In this document: positions 10,276 to 61,678 of the stretch, one piece after another
How the letters are laid out: each line of letters opens with the position of its first letter
Numbering within the stretch: position 1 is the stretch's first letter
The notes under the pieces: model-generated
Told to the model about the DNA's origin: nothing
The model's input: the letters and a program-made list of their open reading frames with translations, nothing else
Database searches by the model: none
Translations under genes and position numbers: made by a program
Source: Anaerolineae bacterium
GTDB taxonomy: Bacteria > Chloroflexota > Anaerolineae > B4-G1 > DUEL01
Direction of reading: 5' to 3'
Length of the DNA stretch: 64,000 nt
Assembly (NCBI GenBank): GCA_041082215.1
Contig: JBDOIF010000152.1
Coordinates: 1,235-65,234, forward strand

Positions 10276-10322
10276 AGCTCACCTCCTCTGAACGTGAAAC
10301 CTGGAACCTTAACCGGGGTTAT

Positions 10323-10357
10323 CAGACGTCAAACGTCAGACGTCATATGTCGAACGA
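10323..10357. repeat. Tandem heptanucleotide repeat (CAGACGT/CAAACGT, about 5 units), same family as 59150..59238
   Basis: cagacgtcaaacgtcagacgtcatatgtcgaacga, in the etfB / LysM-gene intergenic space. Confidence 0.6.
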
Positions 10358-24905: not shown

Positions 24906-27900
24906 CGGCCGGCAACCGCGCCCGGAGCGGGGCCGGGAGGAGCGGCGCCAGCATTTCCCATTCCTGCGGGGTGATCGCCCGCAACCCAACCAGCGCCACC
25001 AGGTAGACCCCCAGCCCTGCCAGCCCTGCCAGCGGACGGTTCAGGAGAGCCACCCCTCCGGTCACCACACCCATCGCCAGCCCGGCCAGGGCCAGCCGCC
25101 CGATCGTCTGCCGCCAGCCCACCGGCCCCAACTGGCGGCGCAGGTCCAGGTAGAACAGCCCCGCCAGCAGCAGTTCTCCCCCCACGATGATCCACGCCGA
25201 GGCAATGTAGCTGAAAGCCGGCACGAAGAGGAGGTTTGCCACCACGGCGAAGACCACCCGCGCCCCTGAGGCCAGGAGGACGTACCGCTGGCGGTTGAGG
25301 GCGATCAGCACATAGTTGGTCAGGCTGTTGAGCCAGCCGAAGAGGATGGACCAGATCAGCAGCCGCAGCGCCGTCGCGCCATGGGGGAGGAACCGGCTGC
25401 CGCTGAGCAGCCCGACCAGCCCCGTCGCCGCCAGCGCGACCACCACCGCTACCGGCAACGCCACCGCCGTCAGCAGCTTGACGGAGAGCTGATAGGAGCG
25501 GCGGAGGCCGGCCCGGTCCTGGGCTGCCTGCTGGGACATCACCGGAAAGACGGCGAGGGTGAAGAAGGAGGGGATGATGTTCAGGGCGTCCACCCACTTG
25601 CGGGCGGCGTCATACCAGCCGACGGCGGCATCCCCCTGGAGGTTCTGGAGCAACAGCACGTTGACGCCCGGGAAGAGGGCCTGCAGCAGGATGGAGGCCA
25701 TCAGGGGCCAGCTCTCGGAGAGCATCAGCCGTTGCAGGGGCCAGGCCACCTGTTCGCGGGTGGGCGGAAGGCGGGACCAGACCAGCCGGTGGGCCAGTAC
25801 CGCCAGTACCGCCAGGGTCGCCAGGTTGGTCAGGACCGCCGCTCCGGCCAGCCCCACGATCCCCATCCCGGCCACCAGCACCAGCACCCCCAGCGTGACC
25901 CGCACCACCGTGGTCACCGTCTGGATGGCGGCGGGGATTTCGTGCTTTTCGAAGCCGCGAAAGAGGGCGGCAAACCCGTAGGCCACGCTCCCCGGCAGCA
26001 GGCCGACGTAGAGCAGCGCCGTCGCCCAGACCGTCTCCTCCGCCAGTGCCCCACCCAGCCCCTGCCATCCGGCCAGAAACCCCCCCAGCATGGGGGCCAC
26101 CGCGGCGTAGAGAAGTAGCCGGAGGACGGTGGTGTTGAGGAAAATCCTGCGCGCCTGATCCCGCTGACGGGCCACCTCCCGCATCATGTACATGTCCAGG
26201 CCGAAGTTGGCCAGCGTGTCAAACCAGAGGTAAATGTTGACCGCCGTCGCGTACTGGCCGTTCCCCACCGGTCCCAGGATGCGGGCCATCAGCGCGGCGA
26301 AGGCGAACTCGATGGCCCGGTTGAAGAGGTTGAGGACAATGGGGGCCAGAGAGTTCTTCGCCACCCGCCGGACGGTGCTGACCTCGTCCTCCTCCCGGTA
26401 AAAGAACCGCCAGAGGTAGAGGCCGACGAGGAAGAGCACCATCATCCCGGCGATGAAGGTGATGAAGGCGCCGACCTTCACGCTGTTGGGGCTGTATTTG
26501 AAGCGGACGGTCCAGGCCCCCGGCTCCAGGAATACTCCCCGGAAGTTCCCGTCCACCCGGGCCACTGCCACCTCCTGTTCTGCCTCTTCTCCCGCCCCCT
26601 GAGGCCGCACGAAGGCCCGCCAGCCGGGGAAGTAGGAGTCGGTCAGCACCAGCCAGCTCGGCTCGGAGACGCTGACATCAATAAAGACCTCGTTGAGGGT
26701 GTAGCTGGTGACTCGTTGCTGGTTGCTGATTGCTGGTTGCTCGCTGCCAGCAACCAGCGACCAGTGACCAGTTTCGAGTATTACGTAGCGGTGGGGGTCA
26801 TAGGTCCGCAGGGCCTGAGCGACGTCGTCGGCCACGACGGCGGCGGTGGCGGGGAGGGTAAAGGCGCGGGGGAGCGCCGAGAGGTTTTCGTACACTCGCA
26901 CCGCCTCGTCCTGATAGACCAACCGGTATTTGGCCGGGTTGGGGATTTCCACCTCGGTGACGATGTATTTGACGTTGAGCAGGTCGAGGAGGGGGCTATC
27001 GAGGCTGGACCACTGCCGGAGGGGGGCAATCCGATTGTACTGGAGCTGGTCCTGTGGCTCGATCAGCTCCATATAAGCGGCGTACTGCTGGGGAAAGATA
27101 GAGTCGTACCCATCCACTGCCTGGAGTCCGTAGAACATCCCCACATTGGCGTTCATTGTCTTGGTAGTGCCGGGCGGGGTGAAGGCGGCGTACCGCCAGA
27201 GGGAGCCGTCCTGCCGCAGGAACGCCACCACCGGCGGGGTGTAGTCCAGAAGCGCCGGGTCCACTGCCGGATGGAACCCCGCGCCGAAGGAGACCAGGTC
27301 CACCACCAGCACTGTCACGGCCAGGAACTCCCACACCGGCCGGCGGCGGAGGAAGATGGGGCAGCGGCTCACCCGCAGGGCGATGCCGGTGGCAGCAAGC
27401 AGCAGTCCGAAGAGGGCAACCCACCTGAACTCGTAGGAGTAGAAGGCCCGATGGTCGGGAAAGGCGCTGGAGGCCAGGGCCAGATTCCAGAAGGCCTGCT
27501 CCACCAGCGGCTCGATCTGTCCGAAGAAGGCCCGGCTGAGGACCAGCCCGACCAGGGTCACCACCCCTCCCCAGAAAGCCATCGCGGCCAGCAGGCTCAC
27601 CAGCGACGGAGCGGCGTCCAGGAGGAGAAACCTGCCCACTCCCCGCTTTCCCCCTCCTGTCCCCTCTTCCCTGCTTCGCCTCACCTCATCCACCCCGAAC
27701 CCTGCCAGCACCGCTACCGACAGGGTGAGGGGGAAGACCCAGCGGAAGGGAGAGTGGGACTGGTGGAGGTAGGGCAGGGCGTAGACGAGGGCGTAGAGGG
27801 GGGTTCCGAAGATGCAGCCGAAGGAGAAGAAGGCGAGAAGGGTAAAAAAGGCACCGATCGCAGGGCGCATAGCGCAGGGCAGCCTGCGGAATACGCAATA

Positions 27901-29124
27901 CGCCATACGGAATACAGCCACTGCGGCCAGGAAAAGCGGCAGAAGCCCCACATAGGCCCCACCCTCGACGTAGTTCTTGATCCCCCAGTCGTGGCTGAGG
28001 ATCGGCTCCCCGTGGGCGTTGACGGAGGCGGGGACCGTGCGCCACTGGAAAAGGTCAAAATAGCTGTGGTGAGCCGGGTTGCCGAAGAAATTGGGGATGG
28101 CGAAGGCGATAATGCGGCGCGGCGGGTATGCCCAGCCGAGCACCTGCTGGAGTGTCGGTGCCGCCTGTGCGCTGCGGAAGCCGGTGGTGGCCACCTCGTA
28201 GAGGGGGACGAACTGCACCGCCCCCAGCGCCAGCCCCAGCAGGACCATCAGGACCAGCCATGCCGCCGTTCTTAACCGCAAAGGGCACAAAGTCTTCTTT
28301 AAGGAAACCACGGAGGGAGCCCTGAAAACTCTGCGAAACTCTGTGTTCTCCGTGTCTCCGTGGTTAGAACCTGATGGAACTGCATAAGTCCTGCCAATCA
28401 ACCGCCAGACGGCGTAGGCTCCGGTCACCAGGAGCACGAAGTAGGTGTTCTCAGCGTGGCCCGCCAGCATCTGGCAGCCCAGCCCCATCCCTCCCAGGAG
28501 CACCCAGGGAAGGCTGGATGGGCGGCTACCCAGTGCCGGCCGCTGCTGGATCACCCGCTCCACCATCGCCAGGATGAAGGGAAGCCAGGAAGAGCCTGCG
28601 ATGATCATCGGGTGGACCACGGAGACCAGCATAAAACCGCTGAACTGGAAGGTGATCCCGGCGATGAGCCCCCCCAGCCGGCTGGCCCCCAGCGTACGGG
28701 CGAGGAGGTAAGCCCACCAGCCAGCCAGCCCCAGTTGGAGCCAGGTAAAGACCCCGTAGGCCCGCCACAGTGGGAGGACATAGAAGACAAGGCTCAGGGG
28801 GTAGAGGACCGAATGCTGCCCGTTGGCGAAGAAGGGATGGCCGGCGAAGACATAGGGGTCCCAGAGAGGCAGCTCCCGCGCCTGGATTGCTTCCACCAGA
28901 AGCCGCTTCCAGGCATAGTTTTCCAGGATCAGGTCGGCCAGCAGGTGGTTTTGGGGGACCCCCACTCCCAGCTCCTCTGCTGCTGCCCGATAGGGCTGGT
29001 GCAGAAAGAGAGCGTCGGCAGGGAGGAGGGTGCGGTCGTCCAGGACGACGGGGGCGAAGAGGATCAGCGGCAGAAAGAGGAGGATGGAGGCCGCAGCCAG
29101 GGTGGAAAGCCTGCAACGGATCAT
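24895..29124 (-). CDS. Giant fusion protein: N-terminal YfhO-family membrane glycosyltransferase-like domain (about 900 aa) fused to a C-terminal Wzx/MATE-like polysaccharide flippase domain (about 500 aa)
   Basis: The N-terminus ([12 protein letters not shown]...[22 protein letters not shown]...) is typical of YfhO. From [37 protein letters not shown] onward it is a canonical Wzx-family flippase. Start set at MIRCRL (29124), overlapping the upstream GT2 stop by 4 bp. Confidence 0.6.
26713..26775. repeat. Palindromic TTGCTGG-type heptamer array embedded in frame in the YfhO-Wzx CDS
   Basis: gttgctggttgctgattgctggttgctcg / ctgccagcaaccagcgaccagtgaccag are reverse complements of each other; translated as [14 protein letters not shown]. 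Confidence 0.55.
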
Positions 29125-29858
29125 GCGCCTGCCCGGAGGGACCGCAGGTGCCGGTGTCGCCAGCGGACCTCCCACACCCGCAGTGCCGCCTCGATCTTGA
29201 CCGGCATCGTCATCTTGGAGCGACCGATGCGCCGGTCCTCGAAGTAGATGGGGACTTCTAAGACGCGGTAGCCGAGCCGTTCGCAGACGTAGGCCATCTC
29301 CACCTGGAAGACGTAGCCCTGGGAGCGGATGGCACTCAGGTCAATGCCCTCCAGGGCCTCCCGCTTCCAGGCCTTGAATCCGGCGGTGATATCTCGCACC
29401 CGGCAGCCGAGGATGATGCGGGCGTAGAGGTTGGCCCACCAGGAAAGGATCACCCGCCCCAGGCCCCACTTCTCATCGGTGCGGCCCCCCTTTACATAGC
29501 GGGATCCCACCACGACATCGTATTGGGGGATATGGGCCAGGAGCCGGGGGACGTCGGAGGGAGCGTGGGAGAAGTCGCAGTCCATCTGCACGATTGCCTC
29601 CGCTCCGTGGGCCAGCGCCCACCGGAAGCCGTCCACATAGGCCCGTCCCAGCCCCCGTAGTCCGGTCCGATGGAGGACGTAGAGCCTGCCGGGGTTTTCC
29701 TCCGCCAGCCGGTCAGCGATCGCTCCGGTGCCGTCGGGCGATTCGTCGTCCACGATCAGGATGTCCAGGTCGGGGACCCCCAGCTCCCACAGCGCCCTTG
29801 CCATGGGGGTCACGTTTTCCGCCTCGTTATACGTTGGTATCACAACGGTTGTTTTCAT
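29121..29858 (-). CDS. GT2 polyprenyl-phosphate mannose/glucose synthase (Dpm1-like)
   Basis: [12 protein letters not shown]...[13 protein letters not shown]...QMDCDFSH are GT2 / DPM-synthase motifs. Confidence 0.8.
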
Positions 29859-31874: not shown

Positions 31875-32029
31875 GGTGGGGTTGCCCTTCCAATAAACTT
31901 CCCACTGCCGGAGCTCCCGGCGGGAGGAATAACGAAATAAAGGTTACCATAGGTAGCGAAGCTTGTCAAGTTCTCTTGTTTGAAGGTCGGACGTGAGTTC
32001 AGACACAAACGCTCATCGGCCGCTTCTGA

Positions 32030-32110
32030 CCTCACCCCATCCCCCTCACCCCACCCCCTGGCTCCCTGCCGCGCGGGAGAGGGGAGGGGGTAGGGGGAAG
32101 GGTGAGGGTC
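32030..32110. repeat. About 80-nt C-rich / G-rich imperfect hairpin (G-quadruplex-capable arm)
   Basis: gacctcaccccatccccctcaccccaccccctggctccctgccgcgcgggagaggggagggggtagggggaagggtgagggtc; the arms are reverse complements, and the G-arm has four or more G3-5 runs. Downstream of comEA. Confidence 0.5.
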
Positions 32111-32153: not shown

Positions 32154-32765
32154 TCAGTCCACCGTGATCCGACCCCGGATCTCCTCGAAGACCGCCGGGC
32201 CAATGCCAGGGACCTCCATCAGCTCTTCCACGCTCTTGAAGGGGCCGTATGTCTCCCGGTATTCGACGATCCGCTGGGCTGTGGAAGGGCCGATGTGGGG
32301 GAGCATTTCCAGCTCCTCAACGGTGGCGATGTTGATGTTTACTATCCCCCCGCTGGCGGAAGCAACCCCGCCGGAAAGAACAGGGATAGGGGGCTCCTCC
32401 CCCACGCGCGGCACGTAGACCTGTTGCTGGTCTCTCAGCTCCTGCGCCAGGTTGATGCGCTCGAGATCGGCTTCGGGCGCCGGACCCCCGGCTGCGCGCA
32501 CGGCGTCTTCCACCAGGCTGCCGGGGGGAAGACGGTAGACCGCGGGCTGCTGCACCGCCCCACAGACGTAAACTCGCAGAGGGAGGGGGGTGGGAGTGGG
32601 GAGGGGGGTGGCCGTGGGGTCAGGGGTGCTGACCTCGATGGGAGGGGCCTGGGGATGGGGGGTGAAGAAGCCCAGCAGGCCGCCTGCGATCAGGCTCAGC
32701 ACAGAGCAGAGGACCAGAAGGCTGCGGTGACGCGCGACGCCGCTCCCCAAATCCGTGTTTTCCAT
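32154..32765 (-). CDS. comEA: ComEA-like DNA-binding protein (tandem helix-hairpin-helix)
   Basis: N-terminal TM; C-terminal VNINIATVEELEMLPHIGPSTAQRIVEYRETYGPFKSVEELMEVPGIGPAVFEEI has HhH motifs. Confidence 0.75.
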   Translation of the reverse strand: MENTDLGSGVARHRSLLVLCSVLSLIAGGLLGFFTPHPQAPPIEVSTPDPTATPLPTPTPLPLRVYVCGAVQQPAVYRLPPGSLVEDAVRAAGGPAPEADLERINLAQELRDQQQVYVPRVGEEPPIPVLSGGVASASGGIVNINIATVEELEMLPHIGPSTAQRIVEYRETYGPFKSVEELMEVPGIGPAVFEEIRGRITVD

Positions 32766-32898
32766 GTGCTTTTCTCCGTTGTAAGCTGCGTTTGTGCCTG
32801 ATTATACTCCGGGAGGCAAAAGAGACAAGTCCACCTTCTCCCCTTGTCCACTCCTCCCTTTCATGCTACAATCTTCCAGGCCTGGGAGTGCGGAAAGC

Positions 32899-43319: not shown

Positions 43320-43334
43320 ACGGAATACGGAGCA

Positions 43335-43364
43335 CGGAGTACGTATTGCGTGTTGCGTACTCCG
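43335..43364 (-). terminator. Repeat-derived hairpin (CGGAGTACG / CGTACTCCG) immediately 3' of fdhA
   Basis: cggagtacgTATTGCGTGTTGcgtactccg lies 2 nt after the fdhA stop; TACGGAA/TATTGCG repeat family. Confidence 0.45.
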
Positions 43365-43365
43365 T

Positions 43366-45471
43366 TTACGAAACCGGCTCCACCCGCACCGCGCAGACCT
43401 TGTACTCCGGGATTTTGGCGAGGGGGTCCAGCGCGGCGTGGGTGAGCGCGTTCGCCGCCGCCTCCGCGTAGTGGAAGGGGATGAAGACGACGCCGGGCCG
43501 GATGCGCTTCGTCAGCCGCACCGCAACCTCGATCTCCCCTCGGCGACTCATCACCCGCACCCGCCGAGCGCCGTCCAGGCCGATGCGGGCCGCGTCGTCC
43601 GGATGCATCTCCACATACGGCTCCGGCGCCTCCTGCTCCAGTTTGGGCGACCGGCGGGTCATGGTGCCGGTGTGGAACTGGAACATGGTGCGGCCCGTGG
43701 TCAGGATGAACGGGTACTCCTCATCGGGCAGTTCCGCCGCCTCCTGGAACTCTATCGCGTGGAAGCGGCCCAGGCCTCGGGTGAACTTCTCCTTGTGCAG
43801 GTACGGGGTGCCGGGGTGTTCGGCCGACGGGACGGGCCACTGCAGGGAGCCCTCCCGGTCCAGCCGCTCGTAGGTGACGCCGCCGTAGGAGGGCGCGACG
43901 CGGGCGATTTCAGACATGATTTCGGCGGGGGAGGAGTAGTCCCATTGCGTATTGCGTATTGCGTATTGCGTATCGCGTGCTGCGTGTTGCGTAAGGCGCT
44001 TGGCCAGTTCACAGAGGATTTCCCAGTCGGCCTTGGCCTGGCCCGGCGGGTCCACGGCCTTCCGCACCCGCTGGATGCGCCGGTCGGTGGCGGTGAAGGT
44101 GCCGTCTTTCTCGGCAAACGATGCGCCCGGCAGAACCACGTGCGCCAGTTGTGCCGTCTCCGTCAGGAAGATGTCCTGAACGACCAGGAAGTCCAGTTTC
44201 TCCAGGCACTCCCGCGCGTGGTGGATGTCGGGGTCGGAGAGAAGGGGGTTCTCGCCCATCACGAAGAGGCCCCGCAGGCGCCCCTCCCCTGCCGCGTGGA
44301 CCATCTCCACGACGGTCATGCCAACCTTGTCGGACAACCCCTCCATGCCCCAGGCGGCCTCAAATCTGGCCTTCGCCTCCGGCGAGGTGACGGGCTGGTA
44401 GGCCGGGTAGACGTTGGGGAGGCCGCCCATGTCGCAGGCGCCCTGGACGTTGTTCTGGCCCCGCAGGGGGTTGACCCCGCCGCCAGGGACGCCCAGATTG
44501 CCGGTGAGCATGGCCAGGTTGGCTACGCTCTTGACGTTGTCGGTGCCGGTGGTGTGCTGGGTGATCCCCATTGCATAGAGAATGGCGGCAGGCTTGTTCT
44601 GGGCGTACATCCGCGCCGCGGCGCGCAGGTCCTCCGCTGGGATGCCGGTAATCTCCTCCACCCGCTCCGGCGGGTACTGCTGGACCACCTGCCACATTTC
44701 CTCAAAGCCCTCGGTCCGCTGCCGGATAAACTCCTGGTCGGCCAGTTCCTCGGTGATGATGACGTACATCAGGCCGTTGAGCCAGGCGACATCGGTGCCG
44801 GGGCGGGGGCGCAGGTAGAGGTCGGCCATCCGGCCGATCTGGACCTCGCGCGGGTCGATGACGACAATTTTCGCCCCCCGCTCCTTTGCTTTGAGGACAT
44901 GGCTGGCGATGAGGGGGTGGCCCTCGGTGGTGTTGGAGCCGGTGATCAGGAAGCAGCGGGTGTATTCGCTGAACTCCGGGATGGAGTTAGTCATCGCGCC
45001 ACTGCCGAATGCGGCGGCCAGACCGGCCACCGTGGGGGCGTGTCAGAGACGGGCGCAGTGGTCCACGTTGTTGGTCCTGAAGACGGCGCGGGCCAGTTTC
45101 TGGGCCAGGTAGTTCTCCTCGTTGGTGCACTTGGCGGAGACCAGGAAGCCCAGGGCGTCGGGGCCGTATGTGTCGCGGATGTGGAGCAGCCGATCCGCGA
45201 CCAGGCCCAGCGCCTCGTCCCAGGACGCCTCCCGGAACCCCCCCTGTGTCCCCCCCGCATGCAGGGGGGAGCGGATGAGGGGGGTCGTCAGCCGGTCCGG
45301 GTGGCGGACGAAGGCGGTGGCGTTCCAGCCCTTGATGCAGAGTTTCCCCCCGCTGACGGGGTGCTCCTTCGCCGGCAACACCCCGACGATTTCGCCGTCC
45401 AGCACCTGGATGTAGAGGCCGCATCCGGTGCCGCAGTAGGGGCAGGTAGTGAAGATGTTTCGGTAGTCCAT
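43366..45471 (-). CDS. fdhA: Formate dehydrogenase catalytic subunit (FdhF/FdhA-type), selenocysteine-containing; in-frame TGA at 45043..45045 read as Sec
   Basis: Tracked ORFs 45043..45513 and 43366..45030 are in the same frame and together align with FdhF: CPYCGTGCG...NNVDHCARL-[TGA]-HAPTVAGL (E. coli: CARV-U-HGPSVAGL). Downstream MGITQHTTG, RGQNNVQGACDMG and a C-terminal KVCAVRVEP are molybdopterin-enzyme motifs. N-terminus placed at MDY (45471); the tracked upstream 14 aa are repeat-derived. Confidence 0.85.
43944..43995. repeat. TTGCGTA heptanucleotide tandem array (about 7 units) in frame inside fdhA
   Basis: attgcgtattgcgtattgcgtattgcgtatcgcgtgctgcgtgttgcgtaag, translated as ...[12 protein letters not shown]..., an insertion relative to the E. 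coli FdhF alignment. Confidence 0.7.
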
Positions 45472-45513
45472 AGGGTACTCCGTGTTACGTATTCCGTATT
45501 GCGTGTCCTGCAT

Positions 45514-47193
45514 TCACGCATCCAGACTCTTGAGAAAATCATTCGCTGCTTTTGCCAGTAATCGCGCTCTTTCCTTGAGAAACTGCTCGTAGTGCTCAAT
45601 GCTCCATTGCCCTTCTAACTGGGCCTTATTTCCAACAGCTTGCGCAAATGAATCGGGGATCAAGTGCTCAAGAAGTAACTGTTCGGAAATGTTGAATTGG
45701 GCCAGGTATTTTGCAGGTGGTTTTCCAGACAACCGGTTCACGTTTGTGCTTTCGTTCAGTACCGTGATGTTTGCCAGAGCATGAATCCGGTCATCAGGGA
45801 CACCGGCACTTCTCAGCACGCTGCGAGGATAAACGTGGTGCCACTGGGGTTCAAACCCACTCACGATTAAAGCACCTGTCCTATCATAGCCAATACGGGT
45901 TTGGTCTACCCAATCCCGCGCTTCTCGGTGAAACACCACCAGATAAAGCATCAGACGCAAGAAACGGCTACCAGCGCAGTCATACCGGCTCAGAAACTCT
46001 TCGGGGGTAATTTCGGAAGGCGCGTGTAAGCGCCCGTATAGGTTCTTTAAAGCCTGATCAAAGTCCTGCGCTTCAGTAATTGCGCGCACGTCCTCGTTCA
46101 AACTGGTAATCGCTGAACCGCTGTAACGGCCATCCCAGTTTGCCAGAAGAAACCAGCGAACAGCCTTGCTAAATCGGTAATTTTTCGTATCTTTCCAGCG
46201 GTGATGTAGCACGAAGAGAGGGATCAGACTGTTAACCGAGGGGAGCAACTTTACTGACATAATCCCGACCTCGGCCAGCCGTTTTCGAACTTCCACGATT
46301 ACTTCTCTGGTTTGTTGCCAAACAACGCTCAGGTTTTGAGGATTCCAAAAGTCTTTAGGGACTTCCTTCAGTCGGGCTCGCCCTTTACCAATGCCAGTCA
46401 TTGTGCGGACGAAGATGCCGGCATCCAGTCCCCATCCTATATCCTCCAACTCGCCGCAAAAGGGAAGATATTCCTCTCGCACCCAGCCTGGATTCCGTAC
46501 AGCGGCCAGCGCCAGAACAACATCGGCTTCCTTCACTCGCGTCCCTTCTTGATTCAACCGAGCGAAAATCTCGGCCACGTCTTCCACTTCATGGTTGATC
46601 CGAATTATGGGAATATCTCGCTCACGGATTTGCCACAAGCGCTGTAAGCGAGCATGGACTTTTGCAAACAGGTCCATCATCTGGGCAGGCTCAGGCTGAA
46701 TGGATGCCACAATCTCTTGAGCCAGTAGAGTTAGTGTCTCAACGTTCTCTGTGCTCAGTACACGGCGCAGGCTAATCCAGTGTGGATCGCGGCGACGGAT
46801 AGGGTTCGGCAGAGCAAACTCCAGATGGTCTTCGTCAGGGAGAAGATTTACCATCACATCATACCGCTCCAGGGCCCTGTTCCATTCCTGTGCGCTATCC
46901 CACCAGTATGGCTTTTGCCCTAAAAGCAGGCAAAGAGCAACCGTCCGTTGTTGCCCATCTACAATCCAAAGCGAAGCCTGCGTACCCTGGGCCGTTTTGG
47001 ACTCCTGGTACGAATACGAAGAGGAGTCCCAGAGCAAAAACGAACCGATCGGATAATCGCGATAGAGTGACTCCGCCAGTTTCTTGACCTGCTCCGGATC
47101 CCAAACGAATTCTCGCTGAAATTCAGGAATATCCACGCTCTTGTTGACCGCCTGTTTGACAATCTCCCGAACTTTCTGTTGCTCAAGTGCCAT
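45514..47193 (-). CDS. GmrSD-family type IV restriction endonuclease (DUF262 ParB-like + DUF1524 HNH-like)
   Basis: DUF262 N-terminus (IPEFQREFVW...DGQQR) and DUF1524 C-terminus (His/Asn motifs); markedly AT-richer than its surroundings. Confidence 0.75.
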   Translation of the reverse strand: MALEQQKVREIVKQAVNKSVDIPEFQREFVWDPEQVKKLAESLYRDYPIGSFLLWDSSSYSYQESKTAQGTQASLWIVDGQQRTVALCLLLGQKPYWWDSAQEWNRALERYDVMVNLLPDEDHLEFALPNPIRRRDPHWISLRRVLSTENVETLTLLAQEIVASIQPEPAQMMDLFAKVHARLQRLWQIRERDIPIIRINHEVEDVAEIFARLNQEGTRVKEADVVLALAAVRNPGWVREEYLPFCGELEDIGWGLDAGIFVRTMTGIGKGRARLKEVPKDFWNPQNLSVVWQQTREVIVEVRKRLAEVGIMSVKLLPSVNSLIPLFVLHHRWKDTKNYRFSKAVRWFLLANWDGRYSGSAITSLNEDVRAITEAQDFDQALKNLYGRLHAPSEITPEEFLSRYDCAGSRFLRLMLYLVVFHREARDWVDQTRIGYDRTGALIVSGFEPQWHHVYPRSVLRSAGVPDDRIHALANITVLNESTNVNRLSGKPPAKYLAQFNISEQLLLEHLIPDSFAQAVGNKAQLEGQWSIEHYEQFLKERARLLAKAANDFLKSLDA

Positions 47194-47233
47194 AGATGTT
47201 TCTCCTTCCGTAAGTTGGCATCCAGCAGAAGCC

Positions 47234-47428
47234 TCATTCCTGCTCCGTTCGCCACGCCAGAATCTGGTGCTGAAGTTCCACAGAGGTATAGCGAGAACCC
47301 AGGTCCCTTAAGGCACCGGCCCATTCAAACCCTGGATGAGCCCGGACCTTCTTTTCACGCTTTGCCAGCAGAAACTCAATAAAATCCCGCACTTCCTGCC
47401 GGATGTCCGCAGGAAGCATCCGATGCAT
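47234..47428 (-). CDS. DUF2281-like small protein (antitoxin-like)
   Basis: 64 aa with QEVRDFIEFLLAKREKK, the DUF2281 pattern. Confidence 0.45.
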   Translation of the reverse strand: MHRMLPADIRQEVRDFIEFLLAKREKKVRAHPGFEWAGALRDLGSRYTSVELQHQILAWRTEQE

Positions 47429-47447
47429 TATCTCACCTCCGCTATCT

Positions 47448-47520
47448 GCCCCTCCGCCAGCGTCAGCGACAGCGGCGGGGCGGCGAAGAGGTCGGCGCCG
47501 GGTGCGTAGCCCAACAAATC
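47448..47520. repeat. 73-bp direct repeat, copy A (about 88% identical to 48104..48176)
   Basis: cccctccgccagcgtcagcgacagcggcggggcggcg...cccaacaa; the first 38 nt are identical to copy B. Confidence 0.8.
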
Positions 47521-47523
47521 GGC

Positions 47524-47772
47524 CTATGCTGGAGAGAGAGCGACTTCCAGGGTTCTCATCCGGCGGTCAACCTCCTCCAGCATATCCTGAATCGCTCTGA
47601 TCGCCTCCTCGTCAAAAAGCACTTCTCCGCACTGGTCACATACCCAGGCCGGGACAGCATCCACAATGAGATGATACCCCTTGCGCGTGACCGTATAACT
47701 GACCGGTTTTCGGACCAGCGTCCCTTTACAATAGAAGCATTCCATGACAATCACCTCTTTCGGGTGCGCCAA
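47524..47772 (-). CDS. YgiT-type (MqsA-like) zinc-finger antitoxin
   Basis: MECFYCKG...VCDQCGEVLFDEEA is the YgiT-type zinc-finger motif. Confidence 0.7.
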   Translation of the reverse strand: MAHPKEVIVMECFYCKGTLVRKPVSYTVTRKGYHLIVDAVPAWVCDQCGEVLFDEEAIRAIQDMLEEVDRRMRTLEVALSPA

Positions 47773-48083
47773 TCAGGTTCCCAGTAGTCCTCGCTGGGCA
47801 GGTAAGCAGTGATGATTGCCAGATAATCCTTCTTCGGCGCACAGACTACGTGCACCGGACGACCCATATGCCCCCAACCCAGCATCAGGCAACTATGCCC
47901 CCGGGCATCCTCCGGATAGTCTTCTATCACTTCGCCGTAGAGAACCACCGCGCGAACTTCATCCGGAGAAATCATCCGGTCAGGAGCATTCATCTGATGT
48001 AAGGCGTGCGGCAGGTAAAGAATCCGCTTCGCAGCAGCTTCTCTAACCTTCTCCAGAATGCTCCTATGGCTCTCGGGTCTCAT
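47751..48083 (-). CDS. DUF4258-family toxin-like protein
   Basis: MRPESHRSILEKVREAAAKRILYLPHALHQMNAPDRMISPDEV...; its ATG (48083..48081) overlaps the TGA of the upstream fdhB-like gene by 1 nt. Confidence 0.6.
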   Translation of the reverse strand: MRPESHRSILEKVREAAAKRILYLPHALHQMNAPDRMISPDEVRAVVLYGEVIEDYPEDARGHSCLMLGWGHMGRPVHVVCAPKKDYLAIITAYLPSEDYWEPDWRTRKR

Positions 48084-48913
48084 CACTCCATACCTACCAT
48101 CGGCCCCTCCGCCAGCGTCAGCGACAGCGGCGGGGCGGCGGCGAGGTCCGCTCCTGGCTCGTACCCCAACAACTCCCCCACATCGCGCCGGATCAGGTCG
48201 TAGAGGACGGTCAGCGGGATGTGGGCCGGGCAGGTCAGTTCGCACTGGCGGCAGCCGACGCAGCGGGCCGCCATGTGCATGGCCCGGATAAGGTGGAAGG
48301 ACGGGAAGGGCGGGGCCAGCACCCCCGGCTCCACCCAGAGCGGGTCCTCCAGCGCGCAGGCCTCGCAGAAGCACTCCGGGCAGATGTTGCGGCAGCCGTA
48401 GCACTTGATGCATTTGGCGAACTGCTCCCGCCAGAAGGCCCAGCGCTCCGCCCAATCCATACTCTCGTACCGGGCGATGATGGGGTTGGGCGAGCCAGCG
48501 AGAGCTGGCGTCCCCAGCGCCACGGCTTGAGGCCAGCCCTCCGTCTTCGGGAAGGGGGCATCGCAGTGGCACGCCTCCGCCTCCTCCGCGGTGCAGGCCA
48601 CCCCCAGGATGTACAGGCGCTCGGGGTCTATCTGATTCCGCTTGGCCATCTCCACCAGCGCGCGCAGATCGCAGGCACGGGCGACAATGCCGAAGCGGGC
48701 CTGCGGGTAGCGCTTCTGGAGCAGGGAGACGACGGACGCCAGAGGGTAGCGAGGGGAGAGAACCAGTTCGGAGAGGTCATCTCCCTGGCGGAAGAGATAC
48801 GGCGCGGTGCCCACAGCCGTCCGCCGCAGGCCGACAACGCCGTCCAGTTCAGGAAGTTTCTCCGCCACGTGGGCGCGCAGGGTGTCCAAAAGGTCGTTAT
48901 CGGTCATCGGCAA
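48083..48913 (-). CDS. FrhB/FdhB-family iron-sulfur protein (putative formate dehydrogenase beta / electron-transfer subunit)
   Basis: An FrhB_FdhB-like core (FGIVARACDLRALVEMAKRNQIDPERLYILGVAC) and two C-terminal Cys clusters (CIKCYGCRNICPECFCEAC; CVGCRQCELTCP). Its last ~25 codons are encoded by repeat copy B. Confidence 0.5.
   Translation of the reverse strand: MPMTDNDLLDTLRAHVAEKLPELDGVVGLRRTAVGTAPYLFRQGDDLSELVLSPRYPLASVVSLLQKRYPQARFGIVARACDLRALVEMAKRNQIDPERLYILGVACTAEEAEACHCDAPFPKTEGWPQAVALGTPALAGSPNPIIARYESMDWAERWAFWREQFAKCIKCYGCRNICPECFCEACALEDPLWVEPGVLAPPFPSFHLIRAMHMAARCVGCRQCELTCPAHIPLTVLYDLIRRDVGELLGYEPGADLAAAPPLSLTLAEGPMVGME
48104..48176. repeat. 73-bp direct repeat, copy B, forming the 3' end of the fdhB-like gene
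   Basis: See copy A; together they bracket the YgiT/DUF4258 cassette. Confidence 0.8.
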
Positions 48914-51275: not shown

Positions 51276-51301
51276 AGCGTACTCCGTATTGCGTATTCCG
51301 T

Positions 51302-51802
51302 TTATGACATGGGCACTTCGCTCAGGAGTTCAGAAAGTTCGGCATCAGGGTCGGTGGTAGAGTAGAGATAGGGCGCGCTACTTTCACACAGTTGTACGAT
51401 ACCGGTGGTTTCCCGCTCCTCAGGAATAATAGAGAGGAGCAGGCGGACAATCTGGGTCAGCAGGTGGAGCCGATGAGCCAGGACAGCCTCTTTCAGGCCA
51501 TGGCGCCCCTCGTAGTACCAGGTTCGGGCCTCGCGGGCGGAGCCCAGGGCGTACTCGTAGAATCGGGCCCGCTCCTTCCCGGACCGGCGGCTGTACCCTT
51601 CGGCGATGTTGGCGGCGATAGAACCCAGGGCCCGATATAACTGGTCGGCCAGGCCGCGCATCCGGGCATCCTCAGCCAGCACCGAAACATCGTGCCAGCC
51701 CAGGTCGGCAGCGAAGAGGGCCAGCCGGTACACCCGCATCTGCCAGAGCGGATCCGCCGTAATCTCCGACGGCACGCTCTGCAACCACTCCTCGTGCGTC
51801 AT
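51302..51802 (-). CDS. Four-helix-bundle protein (TIGR02436 / 23S-rRNA-IVS-protein family)
   Basis: MTHEEWLQS...YRLALFAADL...LGSIAANIAEGYSRRSGKERARFYEYALGSAREARTWYYEG is characteristic of this family; the tracked N-terminal 24 aa are repeat-derived. Confidence 0.7.
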   Translation of the reverse strand: MTHEEWLQSVPSEITADPLWQMRVYRLALFAADLGWHDVSVLAEDARMRGLADQLYRALGSIAANIAEGYSRRSGKERARFYEYALGSAREARTWYYEGRHGLKEAVLAHRLHLLTQIVRLLLSIIPEERETTGIVQLCESSAPYLYSTTDPDAELSELLSEVPMS

Positions 51803-51825: not shown

Positions 51826-51870
51826 AGTACGGAATACGTGCTGCGTACTGCGTATTCCGTATTCCGTGCT
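51826..51870. repeat. TACGGAA-family palindromic repeat hairpin between the 4HB gene and hdrA
   Basis: ggagtacggaatacgTGCTGCGTACTGcgtattccgtattccgtgctcc. Confidence 0.6.
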
Positions 51871-51877
51871 CCACGCG

Positions 51878-53833
51878 CTACACCCAGACGCCCGCTAAGA
51901 GGCCCTCTATCTGCGCCACAATCTGCTCGTCGGTAAAGTGAAGGCCGGTGATGGCATGGGATGGGCAGGTGGCGACGCAGGTGCCACATCCCTGACACAG
52001 CGCCGGGTTTACCTGCGCTTTCCCTTCCACGCGGGAGATCGCGGAGTAAGGGCAGGCCAGGATGCACTCACCGCACCCCACGCAGGCCTCCCGATCCACC
52101 ACGGCGACGGTGGGCGATATGGTGACCTCGCCCTGGTTGAACAACCGCACCACCTCCAGCGCCGCCGCCCCGGCATGGGCCACCGTGTCGGGGATGTCCC
52201 GTGGCCCCTGGGCACAGCCGGCCAGGAAGACCCCCGCCGTGGCCGTCTCCACCGGCCGCAGTTTGGGGTGCGCTTCGGCAAACCAGCCGTCGGGTGTGCG
52301 GCCCAGGCCGAACAACGGGGCGATGCGGTCCACATCGGGCTGCGGCTCGATGGCCGACTCCAGGATCACCAGGTCCACGTCCACAAACACCAGCCGTCCC
52401 AGGTTGGCATCCTCTCCCTTCACGCGGAGTTTGCCATCCGGCATGACTTCCACCTCGGCTCCCTTGCCCCGGACGAAGACGACTCCCTCCTCCTGCACCC
52501 GCTCGTAGAACTCCTCATAGGCCTTGCCGAAGGCCCGCATATCCATATAGAAATCGTACACCTCGGCTCCGGTCTTATCCCGCACCTGGTGGGCGTGCTT
52601 GAGGGCGTACATGCAACAGATGCGGGAGCAGTAAGGGTGAGCGTTCTCGTCGCGGCTGCCGACGCAATGGATGATGGCCACCCGCTGGGGCTTCTTCCCC
52701 TCGGCGGTGACGATCTCCCCCCCGGTGGGGCCGGTGGCGCTGGTGAGCCGCTCAAACTGTAGCCCGGTGATGATATTGGGCGAGAGGCCGTAGGAATACT
52801 GCGGAAGTTTCGCGGGGTCCCACATCGCAAACCCGGTCGCCACGATGATGGCGCCGACCTGAACTTCGAGCAGTTGATCCTCCTGGGTGTAATCAATCGC
52901 CCCGGTGGGGCAGAACTTCTCGCAGACCTTACACTTGCCCTGGGTAAAGAACCGGCAGTTCTCCCGGTCAATCACCGGGATGTTCGGGATGGCCTGGGCG
53001 AAGGGGCGGTAGATGGCCTTCCGCTTCCCCATCCCCGCCTCGAAGGCTGTATCCACCACTTTGGTGGGGCACTTCTCCTGGCAGAGGCCACAGCCGGTGC
53101 ACTTCTCCTCATCCACCGACCGCGCCCGTTTGCGGATGCGGGCGGTGAAATGGCCCACATAGCCGGAGACCTCTTCAACTTCACTGTAGGTCAGGAGGGT
53201 GATGTTGGGATGCCGACCGGCATCCATCATCTTGGGGCCCAGGATTCAGGTACTACAGTCCAGCGTGGGGAAAGTCTTATCCAACTGGGCCATATGGCCG
53301 CCGATGGATGGCTCCCGTTCCACCAGATAGACCGGGTAGCCCGCGTCAGCGATGGAGAGGGCGGCCTGGATGCCGGCGATGCCGCCGCCCACCACCAGCG
53401 CCGCTTTTGTCACCGGCTCCCGCCGGGGCTCCAGCGGGGCCTGGTATGCCACCCGGAAAACCGCCGACCGCACCAGCCGCTTCGCCTTCTCCGTGGCTGC
53501 CTCTTTATCATCGGTGATCCAGGAGACATGCTCGCGGATGTTGGCCATCTGGAAGAAATAGGGGTTGAGCCCGGCGGCCCCCAGGGCTCGCTGGAAGGTC
53601 GTCTCGTGCATCCGGGGGGTGCAGGACGCCACCACGACCCGGTTCAGGCCCAGGTTGCGGATGTCCTCCTGGATCATCAACTGGCCCGGCTCGGAGCACA
53701 TGTACTTGTACACCCGGGCGACGGCGACGCCAGGCAGTTTAGAAGCCATCTCTGCGACCGCCTCCACATCCACCGTGGCCGAGATATTGATGCCGCATTC
53801 ACAGATGTAGACGCCGATTCGGGGTTGCTCCAT
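51878..53833 (-). CDS. hdrA: Heterodisulfide reductase subunit A, selenocysteine-containing paralog 1; in-frame TGA at 53246..53248
   Basis: Tracked ORFs 53246..53971 and 51878..53230 are in one frame: ...GGGIAGIQAAL...KTFPTLDCST-[TGA]-ILGPKMMDAGRHPNITLLTYSEV..., which aligns with the HdrA consensus KTFPTLDCS-x-C-ILxPKMVEVxRHPNI with TGA at the Cys position. Also an FAD Rossmann motif, four or more ferredoxin Cys clusters, and an N-terminal YICECG. Start set at MEQPRIGVY. Confidence 0.85.
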
Positions 53834-57160: not shown

Positions 57161-58005
57161 TCCTCCTTCCGCAGCCCCAGCCGCTCCGCCGGAAGCCCCA
57201 TTGCCAGCCCGATCAACTGTGGCAGAAGGAGCGCTCGCCTGCGCAGGGCTTCGTCATTGCCCGCAATCTTGCGCTGAAAGCGACGGAGGAGCAAATGGCA
57301 GTTCCCGCAAGCATAGAGCAGCAGGTCGGCCTCTTGCACCGCCTCGAGTCTCCGCCGCCCGGCCCTCAGGGCCAGTTCTGGATCGGCCAGATAGACCGTC
57401 GCCCCGCAGCACTCGTCCTCCCCGCCATACTCCAGGACCTCCGCGCCGGTCAGCTCCACCAGGCGGCGAAGGCTCTGTGGTTCCACCGGGTCGTCGAAGC
57501 CCATCACCTCGCCGGGGCGAAAGGCCTGGCAGGGGTTGATGAACGCCACCCGGAAGGGTAGCGGGCGGACGATCCGCGCCCGCACTCCCTCCTCCCGCTC
57601 GGCCAGCAACCGGATCAGGTGGATCGGCTCCACCTCCCCCGCGACCGAAAGCCCCATTGGCTCCAGCCGCCGGTTCGCCTCGGTCCGCACCCTGGGATCG
57701 GCCCGGAGCGCGCGAGCGGCGCGGGCCAGGGTGTTGGTGCAACCCCCGCACACTGTGACCACCTGCCGGTGGCCCATCCGCTCCACCAGCGCCAGGTTGT
57801 AGGCTGCCAGGTAAACCCAATCAGCGGTGAAGGATTCGACGACGGGCGAGCCACAACAGGCGGCCTGCTGGACCAGCTCCAGTTCCATTCCCAGCGCCTC
57901 CAGCACCGCCCGGGTGGCCGCCTCGTATTCGGGCATGCGCTGGAGGACCAGGCAGCCGGGGTAGAAGGCAAATTGCAGGTTACAGGTTGCAGACTGCAGA
58001 GCCAA
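57151..58005 (-). CDS. hdrB: Heterodisulfide reductase subunit B-like (two CCG domains)
   Basis: FYPGC...CCGSP and INPCQ...CCGAT motifs; the N-terminal ~10 aa overlap a CAGGTTR repeat (57975..58002), so the start is uncertain. Confidence 0.75.
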   Translation of the reverse strand: MALQSATCNLQFAFYPGCLVLQRMPEYEAATRAVLEALGMELELVQQAACCGSPVVESFTADWVYLAAYNLALVERMGHRQVVTVCGGCTNTLARAARALRADPRVRTEANRRLEPMGLSVAGEVEPIHLIRLLAEREEGVRARIVRPLPFRVAFINPCQAFRPGEVMGFDDPVEPQSLRRLVELTGAEVLEYGGEDECCGATVYLADPELALRAGRRRLEAVQEADLLLYACGNCHLLLRRFQRKIAGNDEALRRRALLLPQLIGLAMGLPAERLGLRKEEWQ

Positions 58006-59149: not shown

Positions 59150-59238
59150 GTCGGGCGTCAAACGTCAGGCGTCAAACGTCAAACGTCAAACGTCAGGCGT
59201 CAAACGTCAAACGTCAAACGTCAAACGTCAGGCATCAA
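59150..59238. repeat. Tandem array of about 13 GTCAAAC / GTCAGGC heptamers
   Basis: gtcgggcgtcaaacgtcaggcgtcaaacgtcaaacgtcaaacgtcaggc...gtcaggcatcaacc, between mvhD2 and lplA. Confidence 0.85.
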
Positions 59239-59665: not shown

Positions 59666-59715
59666 CTACGGAATACGCAGTACGTACTACGTATTGCGTG
59701 TCGCGTATTGCGCCC
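59666..59715. repeat. TACGGAA/TATTGCG-family repeat overlapping the hdrA2 3' end
   Basis: ctacggaatacgcagtacgtactacgtattgcgtgtcgcgtattgcgc; it encodes the last residues (AMRAQYATRNT) of the tracked HdrA2 ORF. Confidence 0.6.
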
Positions 59716-61678
59716 GCATCGCGAAGATCGCCCCCATCATCTCCGAAACCAGTTGCCGGTCGGTGAAGTGACGGAGGGTGATCGCTTTGGAAGGGCAGGC
59801 TCCGGCGCAGGTGCCGCACCCCTTGCAGAGCGCATCGATCACATGGGCGACCCTGCGCTCTTTCAGGTATTCGATGGCCGCGTACGGACAGGACTGGATA
59901 CACTGCCCGCAGCCGGTGCACATCAGCTCGTCCACGAGGGCGGTGGCCGACTCTACCTTCACCTCTCCCTGGCCGATGAGGGAAAGGACCCGCGCCGCCG
60001 CCGCCGAGCCCTGGGCCACCGAGTCCGGGATGTCCTTCGGCCCCTGAGCGCACCCGGCGACGAGCACCCCGTCGGTCATCGTCGCCACCGGGTCCAGCTT
60101 GGGGTGCTTTTCCCTGAACCACCCGTCGGCGTCGGTGCTGATGCCGAAGAGACGGGCCACTTCCCGGCTGTCGTGGCGCGGTTCCAGGCCGATCGCCAGC
60201 ACCACCATATCCACCGGCAGCCGTCGCTGCCGCCCCACCAGGGAATCGTCGAACTGGACGACCAGTTTTCCCTCCTCCTCCGGCCCGCGTGCAGCGTCCG
60301 TCACCTGGGCCACCTTCCCGCGGATGAAGTGGATCCCCTCATCCAGCATCCGGTGGTAGAACTCCTCATATAGCTTGCCGGGGGCGCGAATGTCAATATA
60401 GAAGTTATATACCTCGGCGTGGGTCTTATGGCGGATCAGGTGGGCCAGCTTCAGGGAGTACATACAGCAGACCCGGGAGCAGTATTCGTGGTACTTCTTG
60501 TCCCGGCTGCCCACGCAGTGGATGATGGCCACCTGTCGGGGGACCGTTTCCCCATCCCGCAGGACCACCTTGCCGCCGGTAGGACCAGCCCCGCTGAGCA
60601 TCCGCTCCATCTCCAGGCTGGTGAAGACGTTGGGGAAACGGCCGTAGCCGTACTGGGGAATCCGTCGGGCGTCGAAGGGATCGAAGCCGGTGGCGAGGAT
60701 GATGTTGCCCACCTGGACCTCCAGGATGGTGTCCTGCTGGTTGTAGTCTATGGCGCCGGTGGGGCAGACCTTTTCACAGAGGCGGCAACGGCCTTTGGTA
60801 AACCAGAGGCAGTTGTCGCGGTCAATGACGGGGACGGGGGGCACTGCCTGGGCGAAGGGGCGGTAGACCGCCTTCCGATACCCCAGCCCCGCCTCGTAGG
60901 CGGCGTCAACGACTTTCGTGGGGCACTTTTCCTCACACGTACCGCATCCGGTGCACTTCTCTGCATCCACCGACCGGGCCCGAACGCGGATGCGGACCAC
61001 AAAGTTGCCCACATAGCCGGAGACGCTTTCCACCTCGCTGTAGGTCAGGAGATTGATGTTGGGATGCCGACCGGCATCCATCATTTTGGGCCCGAGAATT
61101 CAGGCACTACAGTCGAGCGTGGGGAAGGTCTCATCCAGTTGAGCCATCCGGCCGCCGATGGAAGGCTCCCGTTCCACCAGATAGACCGGGTAGCCGGCGT
61201 TGGCCAGCTCCAGGGCCGCCTGGATGCCGGTGATCCCCCCGCCGACGACCAGCGTGGCCGGGTTGATGCGCACCCGGTTTTCCTCCAGGGGCTGGTGGTG
61301 GCGCACCCTTAGGACCGCCGCCTCGACCAGGGCTTTTGCCTTCCCGGTGGCGATCTCGGGGTCATCGTGGACCCAGGAACACTGTTCGCGGATGTTGGCC
61401 ATCTCGAAGAAGTAGGGGTTGAGACCTGCCTCTGCCACAGCTCGCTGGAAGGTCGGCTCGTGCATCCGCGGGGTGCAGGAAGCCACCACCACCCGGTCCA
61501 GTCCCAGCTCCTGAATGTCCTTTTTGATCAGCTCCTGGCCCAGGCTGGAACACATGAAGCGGTAGTCGCGGGCCACGGCCACCCCCGGCAGGTCGGCGGC
61601 CCAGCGGGCCACCTCCGCCACGTCTACCACACCGGCGATGTTGGAACCACAGTGGCAGATGTAGACGCCGATCTTCAT
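59687..61678 (-). CDS. hdrA: Heterodisulfide reductase subunit A, selenocysteine-containing paralog 2; in-frame TGA at 61100..61102
   Basis: Tracked ORFs 61100..61708 and 59687..61084 share a frame: ...ETFPTLDCSA-[TGA]-ILGPKMMDAGRHPNINLLTYSEV...; the same architecture as paralog 1 (about 75% identity by eye). Start set at MKIGVY. Confidence 0.85.

Follow-up and report, generated by a model that had tools for sequence, protein, structure and literature searches.

Heptanucleotide arrays in a formate dehydrogenase gene and its operon in Anaerolineae: an apparently tolerated, slowly changing loop in a probable lineage-wide repeat process

The formate dehydrogenase gene fdhA that lies in the 64,000-nucleotide stretch of DNA analysed here (the window: positions 1,235 to 65,234 of contig JBDOIF010000152.1, from an Anaerolineae bacterium) contains, inside its coding sequence, seven tandem units of 7 nt. 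This raises the question of how the gene of a conserved enzyme comes to carry a simple sequence repeat (SSR) with a unit length not divisible by three, in which the gain or loss of a unit alters the reading frame. An initial annotation of this DNA regarded the array as one copy of a dispersed family similar to the short tandemly repeated repetitive (STRR) sequences, and suggested that it behaves like a contingency locus. We consider it likely, with a probability of roughly 70%, that the array in fdhA belongs to an STRR-like heptanucleotide SSR process that acts throughout this Anaerolineae lineage; the insert that it encodes behaves as a tolerated loop that changes slowly in length, and not as an on/off switch.

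The product of fdhA has the Molybdop_Fe4S4, Molybdopterin and Molydop_binding domains (Pfam), and its nearest solved relatives are the formate dehydrogenases 9t1s_L, 7qv7_S, 7bkb_D and 1aa6_A. An in-frame TGA (45043-45045) occupies the selenocysteine motif CARL-U-HAP. Judging by the conserved MDYRNI (MDYRNIF) that it opens and the GGAG upstream, the start codon is almost certainly ATG 45471; this start and its Shine-Dalgarno site are kept in relatives. The longest open reading frame (ORF) begins MQDTQYGIRNTEYP, and its N-terminal extension, which is another heptamer array (45472-45513), is spurious. The best relatives of the gene are found in metagenome-assembled genomes (MAGs) labelled Thermoflexales, Anaerolineae or Chloroflexota.

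The seven in-frame units that had been described in fdhA are recovered both by direct reading and by Tandem Repeats Finder (TRF), which gives a period of 7, 7.1 copies, 86% matches and the consensus ATTGCGT. On the coding strand the array reads TTACGCA ACACGCA GCACGCG, followed by four perfect ATACGCA units (28 nt); relatives have 4–6 units, mostly imperfect. It is a pure direct array, and its RNA is unstructured compared to shuffled sequences (z +1.35). Three units of any heptamer make one 7-residue module and, since 7 and 3 are coprime, arrays of ACGCAAT always encode one 7-residue peptide (TQYAIRN, circularly permuted). The units ACGCAAT and TACGGAA are stop-free in all six frames and can therefore be read through in either orientation; the CGTCAAA unit has a TGA on the reverse strand. 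When one or two units were added to or removed from the fdhA array in simulations, a stop codon appeared 13–62 codons past the end of the array, and the products ended before the Molydop_binding domain. The insert lies between the helices DWEILCELAKRL and SPAEIMSEIA, at a position that is gapped in the solved homologs.

The initial annotation was also right that the array is an insert relative to FdhA homologs. About 55 of the 60 full-length species-representative orthologs have a 5-residue loop, GAxGF, where the window protein has 17 residues (TQHA...NTQW), that is, 12 more. The same excess is found against most of the database proteins: 120 were surveyed, and the segment from DW to PSYGG is 38 residues long in 86 of the 103 that could be scored and 41, 43, 45, 48, 50 or 53 residues long in the other 17. 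The DNA of 160 fdhA loci was compared, 80 from genomes and 80 from metagenomes. About 20 relatives have arrays of 4–7 units in this loop; at the same fdhA codon position there are 4 units in L002, L018 and L030, about 5 in L017, about 6 in L015 (where ACGTTTC and ACGCAAT units are mixed) and 7 in the window.

Between the window and L002, its closest array-bearing relative, the difference is a clean block of 21 nt, which corresponds to three units and seven residues. The corresponding step from 43 to 50 residues is found in three sequence backgrounds: the short forms are TQHA-IRNTQ in the first, TQHTTRNTQ or TPHATRNTQ (against TQHATRNTQYATRNTQ) in the second, and TQYAIRNTQ in the third. No frameshifted allele was found among about 15 array-bearing ones, and all 160 DNA loci are in frame across the loop. 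The 21-nt differences, together with the lack of frameshifted alleles, show that the arithmetic proposed in the initial annotation, according to which only multiples of three units keep the frame, is borne out in nature.

The carriers are scattered across the fdhA gene tree among insert-free relatives. A single ancestral insertion followed by repeated precise losses was considered and rejected, on account of this scattering and since the insert-free alleles share GAxGF-DF with distant outgroups. The residue directly after the loop is Trp in all long-loop alleles (Tyr in L061) and Phe in the short-loop alleles. Other unit families are also found in the same loop: in L138 (Ga0209162_1008262) it consists of (GTTTCAG)x4 followed by inverted (CTGAAAC)x3, which encode VSGFRFQVSGEPETLKPET, L111 has a decayed form of this type of array, and L137, L139 and L149 have CAAGAGG/GACGAGG-type units.

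The loop region of the window gene is a mosaic. Outside the loop, the window FdhA shares 96% of its residues in the N-terminal part and 94% in the C-terminal part with P0124, a clade-A protein that has no insert; the corresponding identities to P0155, a clade-B protein that bears an array, are 78% and 83%. Over the 21 residues that flank the array, the window matches P0155 at 21 positions and P0124 at 16; in the 30 residues beyond these on either side, the agreement is with P0124 at 30 and 27 positions and with P0155 at 20 and 19. The nucleotide comparison of the gene gives the same pattern. A gene that otherwise belongs to clade A thus contains a patch, at most about 40 codons long, that matches a clade with about 20% divergence. 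Simple inheritance of the array by the window and L002 as sisters was rejected: their overall fdhA nucleotide identity (0.90) is no higher than that between the window and insert-free relatives (0.88–0.91), and P0124 (92–94% identity) is without the insert. We read the patch as the probable trace of short-patch homologous recombination, through which the lineage that includes the window and L002 would have acquired the loop with its array from a donor similar to clade B.

Arrays in frame are also present in a second gene of the window, which codes for a YfhO-Wzx fusion kept at about 1400 residues across many Anaerolineae (an exact database copy, P0003, and 120 orthologs were found). Two arrays in this gene (see table) and a patch of imperfect 7–8-nt periodicity at 28340-28400 on the minus strand (CACGGAGA CACGGAGAA CACAGAG...) coincide with three loops that are hypervariable in length and sequence among 58 aligned orthologs; the loop at 28340-28400 ranges from 0 to more than 70 residues. 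The array of the third unit family can fold into a hairpin of -38.9 kcal/mol (z -5.1). Many orthologs have 7-residue-periodic peptides in their loops, for instance SRFTPHV-SRFTPHV, SRITNHA... or DTRYAIG..., and the DNA of three orthologs confirms that heptamer arrays lie there in frame, with as many as about 12 units and in some cases with both direct and inverted copies; the contig of one ortholog also has an intergenic array made of the same unit. In-frame heptamer arrays are thus widespread in the class, and not the peculiarity of one gene.

Outside coding sequences, the arrays can be followed along the fdhA locus, which is a redox operon of the formate-Hdr-Mvh type whose short spacers are filled by arrays. 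On the minus strand, hypA comes after fdhA, while the genes ahead of it are those for HdrA-like and MvhD/FlpD-like proteins, in two paralogous sets, and for an Fe-S protein. The array directly upstream of fdhA is unstructured as RNA (z -0.9), and its last unit, ACGGAGU, carries the Shine-Dalgarno GGAG at a constant distance from the start codon. From one species to another, the number of units in this spacer ranges from 0 to about 5, and the array-free species have plain CGGAGC or AGGAGG. The array upstream of the first MvhD/FlpD-like gene (start 51275) is likewise unstructured (z +1.44), and there too a last unit ACGGAGU supplies the Shine-Dalgarno site. A Shine-Dalgarno origin of all arrays was rejected, since the coding arrays and the CGTCAAA, CTGGTYR and TTGCAGG arrays have no GGAG.

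Other spacers hold palindromic arrays. The one between fdhA and hypA forms a hairpin of -24 kcal/mol (z -3.0); elsewhere this spacer is 6–14 nt long (L003, L004 and L007) or consists of a 48-nt GCGTGAA array (L002), which looks amplified from local sequence of the kind found in L004 and L007, where the seed ..gagcgtga / ..gtgaaacgta is present. The hairpin downstream of the first HdrA-like gene (-30 kcal/mol, z -3.4) has syntenic counterparts in L002, L015, L017 and L021. The array at the end of the second HdrA-like gene folds weakly better than shuffled sequences (z -1.2); it contains the stop codon of that gene (59687-59689), so that the protein ends with a repeat-encoded tail, ..AQYATRNT. 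The long CGTCAAA array has a self-pairing fold (z -3.4). Taken together, the palindromic arrays at 43320-43365, 51826-51872 and 26708-26775 fold stably (z -3.0 to -5.1), and the fdhA array and the two leader arrays do not (z -0.9 to +1.4). No Rfam family was found at any array, the sole match above the gathering threshold in the window being the large signal recognition particle (SRP) RNA. Among the loci compared, TACGSAA-type arrays in the fdhA flanks occur in the window and its close relatives L002, L006, L008, L015, L017, L021, L050 and L056; the more distant fdhA loci, about 65 in number, have none. The comparison of the spacers across species indicates that the arrays grow in situ, turn over fast and are not limited to three-unit steps outside genes.

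Table. Heptanucleotide arrays of the window and the coding sequences that contain them (positions in the window)
Feature	Coordinates	Strand	Basis
fdhA coding sequence, formate dehydrogenase alpha subunit	43366..45471	minus	Pfam domains, TGA context, PDB homologs
fdhA heptanucleotide array, 7 units, in frame	43944..43993	minus	direct reading and Tandem Repeats Finder
Direct array filling the spacer from the GmrSD stop to the fdhA start: ACGCAAU ACGGAAU ACGUAAC ACGGAGU	45472..45512	minus	
Direct and inverted (palindromic) TACGSAA array, whole 46-nt fdhA-hypA spacer	43320..43365	minus	
Direct and inverted array between HdrA-like gene stop (51878) and next gene	51826..51872	minus	
Direct array just upstream of MvhD/FlpD-like gene (start 51275)	51277..51303	minus	
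Direct and inverted array over the end of the second HdrA-like gene, upstream of the second MvhD-like gene	59666..59712	minus	
CGTCAAA array (GACGUUU on mRNA), second unit family, about 11 units, filling the MvhD-like/LplA-like spacer	59156..59238	minus	
TTGCAGG-like array, fourth unit type, 4 units, intergenic, 5'-UTR-like	57973..58000	minus	
Short CGTCARA-unit array, intergenic, 5'-UTR-like (5' untranslated region)	10322..10351	minus	
YfhO-Wzx fusion coding sequence, 1409 residues	24895..29124	minus	Pfam
YfhO-Wzx in-frame array, 4 imperfect units GTATTCC GTATGGC GTATTGC GTATTCC, family in opposite orientation	27887..27917	minus	
YfhO-Wzx in-frame direct and inverted array, third unit family CTGGTYR / AACCAGC	26708..26775	minus	

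In all, the 64 kb contain about 13 heptamer arrays of at least four unit types, about 9 of which lie in intergenic or operon spacers and 3 wholly in coding sequences. A period scan of the window detected 10 period-7 arrays, to be compared with a mean of 0.03 in 30 second-order Markov simulations, that is an excess of about 300-fold; other periods show no comparable excess. This supports the proposal of the initial annotation that a dispersed, STRR-like heptanucleotide family is present. The further sites that it had listed all exist, with coordinates that shift slightly to those of the table. Independent Logan contigs assembled from run SRR28530377 reproduce two stretches of the window with 100% identity, 24815-29327 and 45398-47379; one contig (L082) is identical across the YfhO arrays and another (L001) across the array at 45472-45512. 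Look-ups with the C-terminal fragment of fdhA (with two alternative starts) and with hypA returned no independent contig that matched the fdhA array, an exact 24-nt anchor (the flank and the first two units) had no match in metagenome contigs of the Joint Genome Institute (JGI), and a 95-residue query centred on the FdhA insert gave only two irrelevant fragments in a word-indexed protein search. Arrays at the same fdhA codon are found in independent MAGs, JGI metagenomes and database proteins. From these comparisons, the fdhA array is not an assembly artefact.

The mechanism that we favour can be described as follows. Tandem arrays with a 7-nt unit would be created, expanded and contracted across this Anaerolineae lineage. 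In short operon spacers, the arrays arise and change length fast, often from a local seed that includes the Shine-Dalgarno heptamer ACGGAGU, and their unit number varies by any amount. Replication slippage would change the length of the arrays, and in coding arrays purifying selection would remove the changes that are not multiples of three, because such changes would truncate FdhA. The FdhA insert itself would be a neutral or nearly neutral extension of a surface loop, and the array-bearing loop allele would have spread between lineages by short-patch homologous recombination. In the fdh-hdr-mvhD operon, the intergenic hairpins and the Shine-Dalgarno leaders may affect how stable the mRNA is or how well it is translated.

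Several points weigh against this interpretation. Slippage is deduced from the comparison of alleles rather than from direct observation, and the role of the intergenic arrays is putative. The AlphaFold2 model of a 554-residue FdhA fragment, computed with a 45-sequence alignment, is too poor to show whether the loop is exposed (mean predicted local distance difference test score, pLDDT, of 52). The loops of 41, 45, 48 and 53 residues are not whole three-unit steps, which implies that other indels or changes at the junctions also contribute. Convergent co-adaptation of the loop flanks could in principle explain the mosaic patch, although this is less parsimonious than recombination. Last, the presence of several unrelated heptamer families in the same FdhA loop goes beyond simple neutral slippage; this recurrent occupation could result from targeted insertion or from selection for a long loop.

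It may be asked whether the arrays have inserted rather than grown, as miniature transposable elements or as palindromes comparable to repetitive extragenic palindromic (REP) sequences with their REP-associated tyrosine transposases (RAYT), or to Rickettsia palindromic elements (RPE). The TACGSAA unit family is indeed found at at least seven sites within 64 kb, many copies are direct and inverted and fold as hairpins, the same FdhA loop is occupied in several lineages, the fdhA patch that bears the array looks laterally transferred, and foreign genes adjoin arrays (the GmrSD island and the PF05635 gene described below). Against insertion, however, the arrays lack a consensus of fixed length, conserved ends and target-site duplications: they have 3–11 units, which are locus-specific. 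In syntenic spacers they appear to be built from local sequence, as illustrated by the seed in L004 and L007 and the GCGTGAA array of L002, and the array upstream of fdhA looks like tandem copies of the resident Shine-Dalgarno heptamer. No transposase turned up in a Pfam scan of selected ORFs of the window, in which no search aimed at transposases was made. We consider a mobile origin unlikely.

In a bolder version of growth in situ, an active, heptamer-specific repeat-writing process that goes beyond slippage, based either on replication or repair or on a dedicated enzyme, would repeatedly seed 7-nt arrays at the same permissive sites. The arrays would then be co-opted as operon punctuation, in the form of unstructured Shine-Dalgarno leaders and mRNA hairpins, and as evolvable protein loops, whose 7-residue modules would come and go in three-unit steps and pass between lineages through short-patch recombination under selection. 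This is a speculative proposal, and we regard it as a long shot.

The arrays may instead have been selected for what they do. The repeats of FdhA and YfhO would then be adaptive loops, and the intergenic copies would serve as platforms with a 7-nt register for a protein that binds RNA or DNA, as ribosome standby sites, or as hairpins that stabilize or terminate the mRNA. In favor of this idea, arrays occupy the same operon junctions in several species, the last unit places its GGAG at a fixed position, the direct arrays are less structured than shuffled sequences while the inverted ones are strongly structured, and the long-loop FdhA allele persists in many lineages, where it has apparently been spread by recombination. 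But at syntenic sites the units differ freely in sequence, in number and even in family; spacers of 6–14 nt and a 5-residue loop serve close relatives well; and the Rfam search gave no match at the arrays, nor was a candidate binding protein identified. A selected module is in our opinion quite improbable.

Contingency-locus-like behaviour, which the initial annotation had proposed and in which the arrays of fdhA and yfhO-wzx would be reversible phase switches that operate by slippage of one unit, like that of neuO, is not supported. The features that suggest it are genuine: the unit is not a multiple of three and the array lies within a coding sequence, the window fdhA contains four perfect ATACGCA units, the loss or gain of one or two units truncates FdhA, and YfhO-Wzx, as an envelope glycosylation protein, belongs to a class that is typical of phase variation. 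It is also true that consensus assemblies would hide minority OFF variants, so that low-level switching is possible. However, none of the roughly 15 array-bearing fdhA alleles is out of frame, while 65.6% of genomes are phase-OFF for neuO, whose arrays have 3–53 units (PMC13001214); the fdhA arrays are short and mostly degenerate, and the YfhO arrays of the window have four imperfect units or are palindromic. FdhA is, moreover, a cytoplasmic redox enzyme encoded in the fdh-hdr-mvhD operon. We therefore consider a phase switch very unlikely.

Last, the initial annotation had itself raised the possibilities of a mis-assembled, collapsed repeat and of a conserved, non-repetitive linker; these, and likewise a chimeric assembly, are effectively refuted: the assembly is of the metagenome type and the fdhA array itself was matched by no independent contig, but the same type of array is found at the same codon in independent material and the Logan contigs reproduce other arrays of the window exactly, while the insert is absent from most orthologs and consists of repetitive DNA where it is present.

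The neighborhood of the arrays has features of its own. In-frame TGA codons are also present at 53246-53248 and 61100-61102 (minus strand) in the paralogous HdrA-like genes, in the motif TLDCS[TA]-U-ILGPKMMD, and mechanical ORF calling splits each of these genes into two ORFs. The codon contexts suggest that the TGAs of fdhA and of the two HdrA-like genes are probably selenocysteine codons, hence three selenoproteins in the window. In L085, the neighborhood of the YfhO ortholog includes a selA gene.

Compared to L006, L008 and L021, the Fe-S gene and fdhA are separated in the window by about 2.5 kb of inserted DNA (45514-48082), which abuts the heptamer spacer upstream of fdhA. The insertion contains a GmrSD/DUF262 restriction gene of low GC content (0.54; 45514-47193) and, judging by the translations, a small ORF that resembles an antitoxin and a toxin-like ORF paired with an antitoxin-like one of the zinc-finger type. 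It is bracketed by a duplication of 62–83 nt of the 3' end of the Fe-S gene (47434-47516 and about 48083-48168), a pattern that is as would be expected for a defence or toxin–antitoxin islet inserted by gene-end duplication.

A gene of the PF05635 family ('23S rRNA intervening sequence protein'; 51305-51802, minus strand), a family of four-helix bundles that includes Avd of diversity-generating retroelements (DGR), lies between the HdrA-like and MvhD-like genes and is flanked by heptamer arrays on both sides (51826-51872 and 51277-51303). L002 has this gene too, but L015 and L017 do not, and in these two the hairpin array stands immediately before mvhD.

Elsewhere in the window, the bacterial large SRP RNA (RF01854, 172 bits) is found at 14123-14386 on the minus strand, and an ORF at about 32154-32801 is flanked by low-complexity repeats, C-rich CCTCACCCCATCCC and G-rich GGGAGGGGG... 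(32029-32108 and 32579-32628), for which TRF gives periods of 5–18.

The clade offers an unusually informative natural experiment on heptamer repeats, in that the same repeat process is visible without frame constraint, in spacers where any unit number occurs, and under constraint, in protein loops where it proceeds by three-unit steps. Of most interest are the colonization of one loop of a conserved selenoenzyme by different heptamer families, the class-wide in-frame arrays in the loops of YfhO-Wzx, and the loop allele that was apparently transferred laterally as a short patch. Essential enzymes can thus gain modular stretches of peptide from repeats that are not triplets and that do not work as switches. 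Caution is needed in annotation, because the arrays generate C-terminal tails encoded by repeats as well as false N-terminal extensions, such as MQDTQYGIRNTEY, which precedes the real start of fdhA.

Heptanucleotide SSRs in coding sequences have already been described. They occur in the genes hmw and TonB-receptor of Haemophilus influenzae (PMC2651432). In neuO, which encodes an O-acetyltransferase of E. coli K1, the unit is AAGACTC, the gene is translated only if the number of units is divisible by three, and mixed repeat numbers can be measured within one culture (PMC13001214). The fdhA array resembles that of neuO by its 7-nt unit in a coding sequence, by the rule of divisibility by three, and by the fact that an array in frame is read as a 7-residue peptide repeat. 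However, neuO is a surface-modification gene carried by a phage, and its array, at the 5' end, consists of near-perfect units. The fdhA arrays have 4–7 units, for the most part degenerate, and encode an internal loop of a core redox enzyme; no OFF alleles were seen, and the differences between alleles match rare three-unit steps.

RPE and REP sequences, the latter also as bacterial interspersed mosaic elements (BIME), are short palindromes found in intergenic spacers; REP hairpins in operon spacers can stabilize the upstream mRNA, and conserved proteins tolerate RPE insertions that lie in frame in their surface regions. Both RPE and REP are discrete, each with a consensus conserved over its full length, and REP sequences are tied to RAYT transposases. 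In contrast, the arrays described here are open-ended and made of 7-nt, locus-specific units in variable copy number, and the copy in fdhA is direct and does not fold. When the window arrays are tested as discrete elements, the number of units (3–11), their sequence and their architecture vary, and in syntenic spacers the growth starts from local seeds.

A further close parallel is provided by the STRR, which together with neuO and the Xanthomonas heptamers are the nearest analogues known. In heterocystous cyanobacteria, their units include CCCCAGT, TTGGTCA and CAACAGT. The arrays of the window work in the same way and fall outside these named cyanobacterial sequence families, as the host is Anaerolineae/Thermoflexales-like and the units are TACGSAA, CGTCAAA, CTGGTYR and TTGCAGG. 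The initial annotation considered heptamer repeats as classically cyanobacterial, and their presence here as unexpected. This was overstated, since an excess of heptameric SSRs has been reported in many bacterial genomes, including Xanthomonas, where the intergenic layout is direct and inverted (PMC4692102); yet we found no paper on such repeats in Chloroflexi in the open-access literature. The heptanucleotides GGGAATC of Xanthomonas and GGGGAYT of Nostoc, as well as those of Calothrix, are intergenic, direct and inverted, and vary in length between related species; why heptamers are the favored long SSR in many bacteria, and what the role of STRR is, are considered open questions (PMC4692102). 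Like these systems, the window has tandem 7-nt units of several families in one genome, dispersed, mostly in short intergenic regions that include the spacers inside operons, with direct arrays and inverted pairs that can form stem-loops. The differences are that the host belongs to Chloroflexota, that the units (TACGSAA, CGTCAAA, CTGGTYR), many with an ACG core, are neither G-rich nor quadruplex-forming, and that a notable fraction of the arrays lies in frame in conserved genes, where the same protein loops have been reoccupied in many lineages.

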